This document shows positions 45,278 through 57,352 of a DNA stretch of 64,000 nt, piece after piece. This DNA is from Chloroflexota bacterium (GTDB lineage: Bacteria > Chloroflexota > Dehalococcoidia > Lucifugimonadales > UBA3495). The first letter of the stretch is position 1. Each line of letters opens with the position of its first letter. A program made the translations under genes and the position numbers. The notes under the pieces are model-generated. The model saw only the letters and a list, made by a program, of their open reading frames with translations, was not told where the DNA came from and searched no databases. The stretch covers positions 67,295-131,294 of the forward strand of contig JAQBUV010000001.1 of NCBI GenBank assembly GCA_027623815.1, given 5' to 3'.

Positions 45278-46018
45278 ATGCAATGCCAACAATGTCACAT
45301 AGGACTGTTACCCGGAGCGCGCTACTGCCACGCCTGCGGTTCTCAAATACAGCCACAATGCCCGACTTGTCAGACTGTTAACCCGGCGGGCAGCAGCTTC
45401 TGTTTTAGCTGTGGCAACGGCTTAACTTCTGAACCTTCAGCGTTCACAGCACCACATTCAGCTGGTGCTGGGCAAAACGGACCGGTTTGCCCCAGATGCC
45501 ATGAGCGCAACGAACCTGCGTCAACTTATTGCTACTCCTGCGGACTGCCCCTAGACGATACCACTCACCGGCAAGGAGTCGTTAATTCGCTACCGGCCTT
45601 CGCCATGGGCCGACCGGGTGGTTTCTGGATACGCTTACTGGCTTATTTCATTGACGCCGTTCTCTTAACAGTATTGTTCGTCGTAGTGTGGCCCATTGTC
45701 TCCGGAGAATCTCTCACGGACTATTTTGCCTCCGGCGAAGAACTGACCTGGGGCGACCTGTTTAGCCTGGCCCTGAACCTGGTGTACTACACCGGAGCCG
45801 TCGCGAATTGGGCAACCACGATCGGGAAAAGACCTTTTGGGTTGTACGTGGTCAGAACCGATGGCTCCAAAGTGGGAGTTGGTCGCGCATTGGCCAGGTA
45901 TTTAGCCTATGTACCGTCAGCCATTATTTTGGGAGGCGGCTTTATTATGATCGCCTTCAGGCAGGATAAACGTGGACTGCATGATCTGATCTGCGACACG
46001 GTAGTCATCCGGCGGTAA
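45278..46018 (+). CDS. Zinc-ribbon (three CxxC..CxxC units) plus RDD-family membrane protein
   Basis: N-terminus: CQQCH..YCHACG, CPTCQ..FCFSCG, CPRCH..YCYSCG. C-terminus: RDD domain (FWIRLLAYFIDAVLL ... RQDKRGLHDLICDTVVI). Confidence 0.75.
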   Translation: MQCQQCHIGLLPGARYCHACGSQIQPQCPTCQTVNPAGSSFCFSCGNGLTSEPSAFTAPHSAGAGQNGPVCPRCHERNEPASTYCYSCGLPLDDTTHRQGVVNSLPAFAMGRPGGFWIRLLAYFIDAVLLTVLFVVVWPIVSGESLTDYFASGEELTWGDLFSLALNLVYYTGAVANWATTIGKRPFGLYVVRTDGSKVGVGRALARYLAYVPSAIILGGGFIMIAFRQDKRGLHDLICDTVVIRR

Positions 46019-46028
46019 GGCCACCATC

Positions 46029-46886
46029 TTGGGCATTCAAACTCTGCTGCTGGCTTCGTTTTCTCCCGGGTTTTTCTGGCTGTGGTTCTTCCTTCGACAG
46101 AATAAATTGCGGCCAGCACCCAAGCGGCTAATTGCGCTAACCTTCTTGCTGGGTTGCGTGTCCACCATACCGGCGGCAATCCTGGAAGGCATATTCAACC
46201 TTGGCGGTCTACTAGAAGCCGAAACCGACCTGGCCACCGTGGCAACCGGCATGCTTCTTGTGGTCGGCCCGGTCGAGGAGTTGTGCAAATTCAGCGCAGT
46301 GCGGTTCGCTGCTTATAGGTCTCAATACTTTGACGAGCCGATGGACGGCTTGGTCTATGGCGCGGCGGCCAGCCTGGGTTTCGCTTCTTTGGAAAACTTC
46401 TTCTACGTCCTGAGCTACGGGCCAGAGGTAATGTTGCTGCGCGCCCCTCTGAGCACCGTCGCCCACCTGGTGTTTGGCAGCATCTGGGGATACGCCTTGG
46501 GCCAGCATCATAGTTCAAATTTCGGTAAGCTATGGCTGGTAATTGGTGGCCTGGCATTAGCGGCAGTGGCCCATGCCCTGTTCAATGTGACCGTGGTTTT
46601 CTATCCCTGGGCGGCGGTTTTACTGGTCTTGGCCGGAGGCATCTGGTCTTTCAAACGGTTTCGGTGGGGCCAACGGGTGTCGCCTTTCCGGCTCAGGCGA
46701 AATTATCCCTTCACCCACTGTCGGTCCTGCGACGCCCTGGTCAGAGTGCTGGACCGGCACTGTACTTCCTGCGGTGCGTCAGCATCCCCGATAGGCCGCG
46801 AGCTAATCTGCGGGCGCTGTCAAAATCGCAATCGTGCCGACGCCACCTATTGCACCGGATGCGGCGACCACCTATTGATGCGGTGA
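46029..46886 (+). CDS. PrsW-family intramembrane protease with a C-terminal double zinc ribbon
   Basis: VEELCKF (EExxK), GFASLENFFY and HLVFGSIWGYALG are PrsW-type motifs. The tail has CRSCD..HCTSCG and CGRCQ..YCTGCG. It starts 11 nt after the RDD gene. Confidence 0.75.
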   Translation: MGIQTLLLASFSPGFFWLWFFLRQNKLRPAPKRLIALTFLLGCVSTIPAAILEGIFNLGGLLEAETDLATVATGMLLVVGPVEELCKFSAVRFAAYRSQYFDEPMDGLVYGAAASLGFASLENFFYVLSYGPEVMLLRAPLSTVAHLVFGSIWGYALGQHHSSNFGKLWLVIGGLALAAVAHALFNVTVVFYPWAAVLLVLAGGIWSFKRFRWGQRVSPFRLRRNYPFTHCRSCDALVRVLDRHCTSCGASASPIGRELICGRCQNRNRADATYCTGCGDHLLMR

Positions 46887-55185: not shown

Positions 55186-55266
55186 CGATGCCGGATGCCG
55201 TTGCTACTATGGCTTCGCTAGGATTGTCCACGGCGGCACTGAGAAGTGAAATTAGGAGGAACCACA

Positions 55267-55563
55267 ATGCAAGTAGTTAGAGTTTATACCGGCGACGATG
55301 GTGAGTCGCACCTGGAGGAATTGGAGCTTCCCTACGAGCAGGTCGCCAAAGCCGAGCGCACCGCCATGCAGAGCGCCACGGGCATTCAGTTTCGGCGGGC
55401 GCCGGTGGGTGATTTCCAAGACTTTCACATCGCCCCGCGACGGCAGTACGTCATCACTTTGCAGGGGCAGGCGGAAATCGGTCTTGGCGACGGCACCAAG
55501 CGGATCTTCAACCCTGGTGATGTGCTGCTGGCCGATGATTTGACCGGTCGCGGCCACACTTGA
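55267..55563 (+). CDS. Small cupin-fold protein
   Basis: AGGAGG 7 nt upstream of ATG 55267. Beta-rich, with the cupin-like segment HIAPRRQYVITLQGQAEIGLGDG..RIFNPGDVLLADD. Confidence 0.55.
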   Translation: MQVVRVYTGDDGESHLEELELPYEQVAKAERTAMQSATGIQFRRAPVGDFQDFHIAPRRQYVITLQGQAEIGLGDGTKRIFNPGDVLLADDLTGRGHT

Positions 55564-55610
55564 CGTCCTTGGGATTGGTAATTATAGTTCAGGGCAACCC
55601 AGAGGGAACT

Positions 55611-56381
55611 ATGCCCAGGAAATTCGGTTTGATCTGGGGAATAAGGGGCAACATTGCAGGCACATTCTTGAATAGCCAATATCTGTACCGGTTCACATTT
55701 TTGTTTCTAGTATTGGTTATCATCATGTTGATCGCCTGCTCATCAGAGGGCGGGACCCCGGTTACGAATGATGAACTTCAAGCCACCATTGCGGGGCCAG
55801 CAGGCCAGCCGAATTCTTCTCCATCAGCTGAAACCTCGGGTTCCGTCCAATCTCCATACCAGGGACAGGAAACCCGAAAGATCAAGGCCTTGTCTCAGGA
55901 TGATATCGACGGGTTGCTTAACGGCTCGGGAACTCCTTTTGGTGGAATTGCCAAGCCAGCGGAACTTAACGGATATCCGGGCCCGCGCCATGTTTTGGAC
56001 GCGGTTGCGTCGGGAGAGTTCCAGGTGACGCCGGAGCAACTAGCGCAAATCGAATCACTTTACGACGGGATGCAGTCAGAAGCAATTGAACTTGGCCAAA
56101 CCATCATAGGGGCTGAAGAGTCGATTGATACCGCGTTTTCTAGCGGTACTATCACTGAAGAATCTCTGAAAGACAAAATTGCCCTGAGCGCGAAACTATA
56201 TGGCCAGTTGAGAATAGTCCATCTGAAAACGCACCTGTCCATGATTGATATTTTGAATCTAGAACAAGTTGCTCACTACAATGTACTGCGAGGGTATTCG
56301 TCAGGGGGCGACCCCTGCGCCGAAGTCCCACCAGGAGACCACGATGCCGCACTATGGAAGAAGCACAACAACTGCCCATAG
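55611..56381 (+). CDS. Putative lipoprotein with a Spy/CpxP-like (LTXXQ) helical domain
   Basis: Lipobox LIAC after a hydrophobic stretch, and two LTXXQ-like motifs (VTPEQLAQIESL, LNLEQVAHYNVL). Confidence 0.5.
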   Translation: MPRKFGLIWGIRGNIAGTFLNSQYLYRFTFLFLVLVIIMLIACSSEGGTPVTNDELQATIAGPAGQPNSSPSAETSGSVQSPYQGQETRKIKALSQDDIDGLLNGSGTPFGGIAKPAELNGYPGPRHVLDAVASGEFQVTPEQLAQIESLYDGMQSEAIELGQTIIGAEESIDTAFSSGTITEESLKDKIALSAKLYGQLRIVHLKTHLSMIDILNLEQVAHYNVLRGYSSGGDPCAEVPPGDHDAALWKKHNNCP

Positions 56382-56462
56382 ATGTAGCCTTCCCGATGGC
56401 GCGAGTGTGACCGTCCAGGTGTTTAATCCCAATGCGGCGATAATGCTACCTGTTTAGGCACC

Positions 56463-56520
56463 TTCGACAAGCTCAATGCGGGCGGTAGTCCCTTTATCCA
56501 CTCGCGATGAGTTTGTCGAA
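56463..56520. repeat. Palindromic repeat family 2, copy 2
   Basis: TTCGACAAGCTCA ... TGAGTTTGTCGAA, between the convergent lipoprotein and archaellin-like genes. Confidence 0.6.
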
Positions 56521-56569
56521 CCCCTGTTTAGGGCTGGCGTTTTACCCTTCGCAACAGCTTACGCTTCAG

Positions 56570-57031
56570 TTATATGACAAGCTCATCCAACCGCACGATC
56601 GCCCCTCCATGGGTTATTCCCGTTTCAACCATATGGGAAATGTGGGCTGAGACTAAGGTCTGGTTATTGTCTGTGTACCTAACCGAAGTGACACCTGGCG
56701 TCAAGTCCAATGCTTCGGCCGACGCTGTACTCCCAACGTAAAATGTGATGGCCGATACGGTACCTCCGCTACCCGTGGCCGACGCGGTGGCGACAACCGA
56801 ACCCTTTAGCTGCATTGTCGATTGGGTCTCAGATAACCCAGAGCTGATGGTCTGTTTGGCTTTGTCGGTAGTGAACAGTCTGGTGGAAAGGGCAGCAAAT
56901 GAGAACACTGAAGCCACCACAACAAAAGCAATGAGAACGATGGCAGTTTCCAGACCAGTGATGCCTTGTTGCTCGCTTGGAATAATACGAATGGGCTTTA
57001 GAGTGCTGCGGAACATAATTGTCACAAACAA
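56570..57031 (-). CDS. Archaellin-like protein (archaeal flagellin / class III signal peptide, type IV pilin-like)
   Basis: Short basic leader, then QG-ITGLETAIVLIAFVVVASVFSFAALSTRLFTTDKAKQTISSGLSETQSTMQLKGSVVA, then ...VSAITFYVGSTASAEALDLT..VSVRYTD, the archaellin N-helix and beta-domain pattern. The track start is TTG 57031; ATG 57016 is more likely. No SD. Confidence 0.7.
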   Translation of the reverse strand: MFVTIMFRSTLKPIRIIPSEQQGITGLETAIVLIAFVVVASVFSFAALSTRLFTTDKAKQTISSGLSETQSTMQLKGSVVATASATGSGGTVSAITFYVGSTASAEALDLTPGVTSVRYTDNNQTLVSAHISHMVETGITHGGAIVRLDELVI

Positions 57032-57352
57032 AGTTAAGGATGGTAATGGCTAGGTTAACGTTGCTAGCAATAGCAGAGTAAAATCGGCGGGACACATGGG
57101 ACGACACCCTGTTCCTAGGGACGTATCCCATCAGTCTAGACCTGTTAATCATGTCTATTCAGAAACTCTATTGAGGTCATTTCACCCTTTAATTCCCAAG
57201 CAAACACTTTTGATAATCCAGTGTAGAATCGGCGCAATGTTGCCGGTTGTGGTTTAATAGTGTCTCCACCGGAGATATGACCCGTAAGCTGCTAAGTTGC
57301 TCCGGTCGAATACTCAGATGTTATCTAGCCCATTGCAAATTGGAGGTGGACA

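Follow-up and report, generated by a model that had tools for sequence, protein, structure and literature searches.

The archaellin-like gene in the 64,000-nucleotide stretch of Chloroflexota DNA analysed here (hereafter the window) is best explained as a stand-alone paralogue of the archaellin already known from Chloroflexota, located in a strain-variable island, shortened at its 3' end and probably non-functional; we put the probability of this reading at roughly three in four. Archaellins in Chloroflexota have already been published, and this ORF is not a new kind of system.

Archaellum clusters have been described in cultivated SAR202 bacteria, where one isolate carries six flaB copies scattered outside its archaellum cluster (Lim et al., Nat Commun 2023, PMC10444878). 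A later survey (Sivabalasarma et al., Nat Microbiol 2025, PMC12488501) counted archaellum loci in 243 of 3,780 Chloroflexota genomes; the same study solved the filament structure of L. aerophila, inferred transfer to Chloroflexota from Methanotecta-type Euryarchaeota, and placed the signal peptidase gene of archaellated Chloroflexota outside the archaellum locus. These two papers confirm the Chloroflexota archaellum clusters that a preliminary description of this DNA had brought up, and the resemblance to Methanomicrobia FlaB that it pointed out fits the published Methanotecta donor.

An archaellin-family ORF with a class III signal peptide

The ORF list and its translations assign the ORF in 56570..57031 to the minus strand. 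The preliminary description had the interval right and omitted the strand, and both peptide strings that it quoted occur verbatim in the translation. The ATG at 57016 is the likely start, giving a protein of 148 aa, and the same call was made by NCBI and JGI. An identical protein is present in GenBank under three accessions (MDA0733190.1, MDA1217918.1 and PKB57802.1), annotated as a hypothetical protein of Chloroflexi/Chloroflexota MAGs, with the locus tag O2909_00550. The gene and its parts are as follows:

56570..57016, minus strand: truncated stand-alone archaellin (arlB/flaB) ORF, 148 aa (ORF list, PF01917, exact database match)
56963..57016, minus strand: class III (prepilin-type) signal peptide MFRSTLKPIRIIPSEQQG, 18 codons (TIGR02537 above its cut-off, register of 9i5h, column statistics)
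56648..56962, minus strand: archaellin-homologous mature part, residues 19-123, with the N-terminal hydrophobic helix and the first four beta-strands (family HMM, identity to the full-length allele P0002)
56570..56647, minus strand: twenty-five unrelated codons, AHISHMVETGITHGGAIVRLDELVI, and a stop, where the full-length allele has its last 76 residues (DNA breakpoint, HMM test of the tail, pLDDT)

In a profile search, the window protein matched Pfam PF01917 (Arch_flagellin) with 63.8 bits (E 3e-17, cut-off 29.5), a match that spans only profile positions 1-102 of 162, and NCBIfam TIGR02537 (archaellin/type IV pilin N-terminal domain) with 23.9 bits (cut-off 20). Against the family HMM built in this analysis it scored 188 bits. 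The archaellin and signal-peptide profiles with which the preliminary description had proposed to check its claim thus both scored above cut-off, bearing out an archaellin-like gene with a class III signal peptide. That description had also named a bacterial Flp/Tad or type IVa pilin as the alternative; none matched, and besides PF01917 a Pfam scan at E <= 1 returned three insignificant matches with no pilin family among them. A homologue search returned 2850 proteins at E <= 0.001, and the best 120 of these 2850 all contain PF01917, most of them being 200-210 aa long. Judged by its N-terminal two-thirds, the ORF truly belongs to the archaellin family.

Relatives with 57-69% identity to the window protein (P0017 and P0008) are proteins of 202-208 aa encoded by the first genes of complete archaellum clusters. 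In these clusters arlB is accompanied by two more PF01917 genes, presumably arlF/G, and by a CheC-like gene. The KaiC-like ATPase, T2SSE ATPase and 496-aa membrane protein that are also encoded there presumably correspond to ArlH, ArlI and ArlJ, respectively. A search of GTDB species representatives found no close arlB, and a scan of JGI metagenome contigs returned only two matches, both of them cluster-heading arlB genes with 55% identity.

The 18-aa leader contains two R, one K and one E and ends in Q-G (...EQQG), directly followed by ITGLETAIVLIAF. It is short and basic, with Gly at position -1, and precedes ITGLETAIVLIAFVVV, with Gly at +3, and a hydrophobic helix; in this helix, ITGLETAIVLIAFVVVASVFSFAALS, Gly occupies +3 and Glu +5. 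The product of the ORF is predicted to be cleaved after Gly18. The mature protein would then have 130 aa, a value that replaces the 128 aa given earlier. Column statistics show that position -2 of the cleavage site, a Q here, is an R in 95% of relatives.

Replacement of the 3' end of the gene by an unrelated segment

Among the matches listed, the only protein with more than 70% identity to the window protein is P0002, a full-length archaellin of 199 aa (93% identity over 91% of the window protein). Its source is a set of Logan contigs whose DNA is 99% identical to the window and which share with it a downstream backbone consisting of a cupin-like gene and the HhH-GPD, SfsA, PyrF, DUF951 and MFS genes. 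The two proteins are the same, save two substitutions, up to ...YTDNNQTLVS (residue 123). Beyond this residue P0002 runs on for 76 more residues and follows the family through to its end, whereas the window protein has the 25-residue tail and a stop. In the family HMM alignment, the window protein correspondingly occupies profile positions 4 to about 126-140 of 206.

At the DNA level, blastn and alignment place the 99% identity with this sister strain from 57202 to 56647, where it stops sharply to resume at 55559, meaning that 1515 bp of the sister strain have been swapped for an unrelated 1087 bp in the window strain. With the lost 1515 bp went the 3' ends of arlB and of a small cupin-like gene, along with a DUF7330-like gene for a 276-aa lipoprotein. 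These alignments fix the 3' truncation of the window archaellin and its breakpoints. The features of the replaced region are:

55246..55563, plus strand: small cupin-like ORF at the other edge of the replacement, ending ...GRGHT* here and ...GRGHTTAVAGNVTRVSIAIPLVD* in the sister-strain contig L001 (ORF translations, junction sequence)
55560..56646, no strand: strain-specific 1087-bp segment with the Spy/CpxP-like lipoprotein gene and the hairpin at 56463-56520 (blastn of L001 against the window)
55611..56381, plus strand: Spy/CpxP-like lipoprotein gene O2909_00545, 256 aa (homologues named Spy/CpxP family or carrying PF07813/PF13801)
56463-56485 / 56498-56520, strand not given: imperfect 23-nt inverted repeat, 78% complementary (repeat search, folding)

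The missing C-terminal half of the archaellin was found by the family HMM in none of the six frames of 55400-57300, and tblastn located no C-terminal archaellin remnant elsewhere in the 64-kb window. The two alleles differ by two non-synonymous and two synonymous changes, too few for a selection test. Two further ideas about the exchanged DNA were rejected. The tail (...ETGITHGG...) is not a remnant of a divergent arlB allele, since 721 of 2000 shuffles scored at least as high as the tail against the C-terminal HMM of the family. Nor are the replaced segments related or inverted copies of one another or derived from an arl cluster, as no similarity was found.

The gene introduced with the segment, O2909_00545, has 3478 homologues, which are common in Chloroflexota and in some cases annotated as Spy/CpxP family. 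Its GC content (50.7%, z = -2.1) is no higher than in the archaellin gene, and its closest homologue, with 86% identity, belongs to another organism and an unrelated genomic context. The 276-aa lipoprotein of the sister strain (L001 1901-2731), encoded directly downstream of the full-length arlB, is built of repeated beta-rich 'SNG(x)I' units; it is absent from the window and has only a weak, sub-threshold match to DUF7330.

We considered whether the truncation could be an assembly artefact, a chimera in which co-occurring strains were joined where the island varies. In favour of such a join, the strains differ on either side of the 556-bp shared core, and several Logan contigs break at the same upstream base. 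However, assemblies made independently share the junction, among them NCBI MAGs, a JGI contig and a Logan contig from SRR2027816: it is contained in JGI contig L006 (99.97% identity over 15 kb) and in the short Logan contig L007, which spans 55927-57240 (99.9%), and it also underlies the three GenBank protein records. Because the junction recurs in all of these, misassembly is unlikely, and we regard a chimeric origin as extremely improbable.

Loss of part of the outer domain

AlphaFold2 was run on P0002 with a 33-sequence alignment, and on the window protein with the same rows plus P0002. The P0002 model (pLDDT 80.6, pTM 0.62) consists of an N-terminal helix at residues 21-62 followed by nine beta-strands. 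When this predicted fold was compared with the PDB, the best match was 9i5h, the archaellin of L. aerophila (TM 0.70/0.76), with archaeal archaellins next; by sequence, residues 19-193 of P0002 align with residues 1-177 of 9i5h at E 5e-32 and 40% identity. The model of the window protein was of lower confidence (pLDDT 61.2, pTM 0.31), with pLDDT below 50 for residues 127-148. The structural comparison with ArlB suggested in the preliminary description places the full-length allele among the archaellins. The breakpoint falls after strand 4, so that five of the nine predicted beta-strands are gone and the window protein has no equivalent of 9i5h residues 108-183; a complete C-terminal beta-sandwich outer domain is absent from it. 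Without a complete beta-sandwich, the gene is most likely a non-functional relic (pseudogene), and we infer that the window archaellin has lost its function. Against this reading as a relic count the open ORF, the intact signal peptide and helix, and the 186 bp that are conserved upstream. The presence of the truncated allele in several assemblies further implies that it is not rapidly purged.

These last observations could instead describe a functional short pilin or minor subunit, in which a prepilin peptidase encoded elsewhere would process the 130-aa mature protein, which would then become part of an archaellum or of a fibre of the Tad/T4P type, perhaps capping it or serving as a minor subunit. 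The hydrophobic helix and class III signal peptide, both intact, would serve such a role, the open ORF recurs in the three GenBank records, and both peptidases outside the cluster (PMC12488501) and scattered flaB genes (PMC10444878) have precedents, in archaellated Chloroflexota and SAR202 respectively. We nevertheless consider it unlikely, as the short form is derived by segment replacement from the 199-aa allele of a 99%-identical strain, five of nine strands are missing with the remaining globular part predicted at low confidence, the new tail has no similarity to the family, and the architecture occurs in no other close homologue among the matches listed. The same results speak against a proposal in the preliminary description, that the gene encodes a minimal mature pilin that is short by design. 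The ORF is short because of its 3' truncation relative to the 199-aa allele, and its C-terminal 25 residues are unrelated to the family, a truncation that had gone unnoticed. Of the two alternatives offered there, it is the other, a remnant of a horizontally acquired archaellum-type system, that is supported.

Genomic neighbourhood of the solitary archaellin gene

As first described, the archaellin gene stands alone among ordinary bacterial genes. Using as queries the proteins of a complete cluster from a relative (L010), namely both PF01917 (arlF/G-like) proteins, the arlH-, arlI- and arlJ-like proteins and three accessory proteins, tblastn at E <= 1 found no homologue in the 64-kb window. 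T2SSE, T2SSF, KaiC-like and Peptidase_A24 domains are likewise absent from the Pfam listings covering the window, which contain no T4P gene. An arl locus in the sense of arlB followed by arlF/G, arlH, arlI and arlJ is therefore not present within the 64-kb window, and the earlier statement that the window holds no ArlI, ArlJ, ArlH or prepilin peptidase gene agrees with both searches. Assembly genes are absent within 64 kb; a complete arl cluster, or a Tad/T4P system using the short subunit, may lie elsewhere in the genome.

The island that holds the archaellin is flanked by the HhH-GPD, SfsA and PyrF genes on one side and by alpha/beta-hydrolase and short-chain dehydrogenase (SDR) genes on the other. 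The full-length arlB of the sister strain is also solitary, and its flanks share nothing with arl clusters. In a PyrF search of GTDB representatives, the nearest protein (62% identity) was from a Dehalococcoidia MAG (L012), which keeps the pyrF-sfsA-HhH-GPD...SDR synteny but has a different gene between HhH-GPD and SDR. From the non-arl flanks in the sister strain and the different gene at this position in L012, we conclude that the archaellin resides in a flexible island. The ORF in the island position of L012 (7553-8245, 230 aa) resembles a Uma2-type endonuclease by eye.

Other observations concern the borders of the island and the clusters of relatives. Upstream of the full-length allele, the first 802 bp of L001 (1-802; also in L002 and L004) are unrelated to the window and contain a 118-aa ORF with no Pfam match. 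Three independent Logan contigs stop at one identical base, 988 bp upstream of arlB, and this common end suggests a repeat or a strain-variable boundary. In L009 (10937-16196), compared with the near-identical L008 and L010, the T2SSE ATPase gene is split into parts of 99 aa and 468 aa, fragmented genes separate arlB from the PF01917 (arlF/G-like) genes, and several DDE transposases flank the clusters. Given the split T2SSE gene (presumed arlI) and the fragmented genes, cluster decay and strain polymorphism appear to affect relatives with full arl clusters too.

Elsewhere, the window contains three luciferase-like monooxygenase genes (PF00296; 24280-25458, 59195-60373 and 62498-63580), three CoA-transferase genes (PF01144; 15572-18493), and enoyl-CoA hydratase and acyl-CoA dehydrogenase genes. 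Paralogue-rich catabolic gene content of this kind is typical of SAR202-type Chloroflexota. At 45278-46886, a gene for a double zinc-ribbon and RDD-family membrane protein adjoins one for an intramembrane protease of the PrsW family that carries a zinc ribbon at its C-terminus.

Could the truncated gene be a spare archaellin of an archaellated organism, with a complete arl cluster elsewhere in the genome, and its truncation a null allele of a dispensable paralogue, as in the setting of 'Ca. Lucifugimonas marina'? This proposal overlaps with our preferred explanation, and the sole difference is whether the organism is archaellated. It draws on the six flaB copies outside the cluster of the SAR202 isolate (PMC10444878) and on the full-length P0002, which is predicted to fold as a complete archaellin. 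The host is a member of the Chloroflexota and probably of the Dehalococcoidia: its GroEL shares 97% identity with a protein labelled 'Dehalococcoidia bacterium', and its nearest PyrF, with the surrounding synteny, is in a Dehalococcoidia MAG. On the other side, no second archaellin could be tied to the MAG in the best 120 of 2850 matches, a weak check as most entries carry no source name; the lineage is unusually divergent at conserved positions; and GCA_027619165.1, one of the MAGs behind the three GenBank records of the protein, does not appear among the archaellum-bearing Chloroflexota listed in the accessible part of the published supplements, a weak negative. A comparison of relatives with 92% GroEL identity with the contigs that hold arl clusters found no link. 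On this evidence an archaellated host is a real possibility, but not the outcome that we expect.

Composition, flanking regions and sequence divergence

The archaellin gene has a GC content of 51.2%, against 56.9 ± 2.9% for 50 window ORFs (z = -1.95), and a GC3 of 55%, against 66.7% for window ORFs (z = -2.0). The gene had been described as more A+T-rich than its neighbours; the deviation is real (z about -2), but it is only moderate and is shared by the Spy-like neighbour. Two features lie upstream:

57017..57352, no strand: A+T-rich intergenic region, 336 bp, 44.3% GC, between the archaellin ORF and a divergent alpha/beta-hydrolase gene (composition)
57017..57202, minus strand: upstream region common to the strain with the full-length allele, 186 bp, 99% identity (blastn and alignment)

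The upstream stretch is A+T-rich, as had been reported (the window as a whole has 56.6% GC), but measures 336 bp in place of the approximately 320 bp first estimated. The promoter presumably lies within 57017..57202; beyond 57202 the window and the strain with the full-length allele are unrelated. In agreement with the reported lack of a Shine-Dalgarno sequence, an AGGAGG-like motif is absent within 40 nt upstream of the ATG. Rfam, promoter and terminator scans of the archaellin flanks returned nothing above chance. Downstream, the palindromic repeat said to follow the gene directly does exist as an inverted repeat (56463-56520), which folds moderately better than shuffled sequences (z = -2.4), but it is imperfect and lies some 50 nt past the stop. 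It was rejected as a repeated element, being single-copy within the window.

Of the 85 columns in which conservation among the other top matches reaches 90% or more, the P0001/P0002 lineage departs from the consensus in 14; other members do so in a median of 1 and in no more than 11. Among its substitutions are G46R in the helix and, at position -2 of the cleavage site, Q for R. As Q at -2 is also found in four other family members, this change alone need not block processing. We infer from the divergence of these sequences that constraint on the P0001/P0002 lineage has probably been relaxed. The lineage might otherwise represent an archaellin that was uncoupled from its motor and co-opted in Dehalococcoidia lacking arlH, arlI and arlJ, with the window allele segregating as a natural null or dominant-negative variant, a proposal that we hold to be very unlikely. 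If it were true, the subunit could be built by bacterial Tad/T4P-type machinery, for example, or form a non-motility fibre.

Proposed history and comparison with known archaella

Our preferred explanation, a truncated and probably non-functional paralogue, entails the following history. The archaellin family, together with the whole archaellum cluster, passed from Methanotecta-type Euryarchaeota into Chloroflexota (Dehalococcoidia, Anaerolineae), and a stand-alone arlB/flaB paralogue came to lie in a strain-variable island between conserved housekeeping genes. In the window strain, a segment replacement then cut off the last 76 codons, fused 25 unrelated codons to the remainder and introduced the Spy/CpxP-like gene. 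Four of the nine outer-domain beta-strands are left, along with the signal peptide and the hydrophobic helix for assembly. The product, if translated, might still enter the membrane and possibly undergo cleavage behind Gly18, but it could no longer build the full beta-sandwich of which the filament surface consists.

The locus reveals no new system, and its value lies mainly in documentation. It provides a strain-resolved example of horizontally acquired archaellum genes decaying in Chloroflexota, in which an isolated arlB is intact in one strain and clipped by cassette replacement in a 99%-identical one. Such relics help to calibrate surveys that score bacterial genomes as 'archaellin-positive' by a PF01917 match alone, and are also useful for the study of motility loss in pelagic Dehalococcoidia.

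Among known systems, the cluster-heading archaellins P0017 and P0008 (loci L008-L011 and L026-L027) resemble the window ORF through PF01917 and through their 57-69% identity over the N-terminal 120 residues. They differ from it in being 202-208 aa long and placed upstream of arl-type genes, whereas the window ORF has 148 aa and is alone. 'Candidatus Lucifugimonas marina' (SAR202, PMC10444878), of the same Dehalococcoidia class, likewise has archaellin genes outside its arl cluster and amid ordinary bacterial genes. Six flaB genes in tandem, flaGFHIJ and a candidate FlaK are present in its genomes as well, while the copy in the window is truncated and the comparison here covers the 64-kb window.

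The ArlB of Litorilinea aerophila (PDB 9i5h, PMC12488501) has its family and fold in common with P0002, to which it aligns from end to end, and its mature N-terminus is in the same register as that of the window archaellin (ITALETA in L. aerophila and ITGLETA in the window). Unlike L. aerophila ArlB, the window copy lacks about 42% of the mature subunit (9i5h residues 108-183), has Q rather than R at -2, and is followed by no arlG, arlF, arlH, arlI or arlJ. The euryarchaeal archaellins of Methanospirillum hungatei (5tfy) and Methanococcus maripaludis (5z1l) likewise combine a class III signal peptide with an N-terminal helix and a beta-sandwich outer domain. The host here is a bacterium, and P0002 is farther from 5tfy (E 2e-13) than from the bacterial archaellin (E 5e-32).
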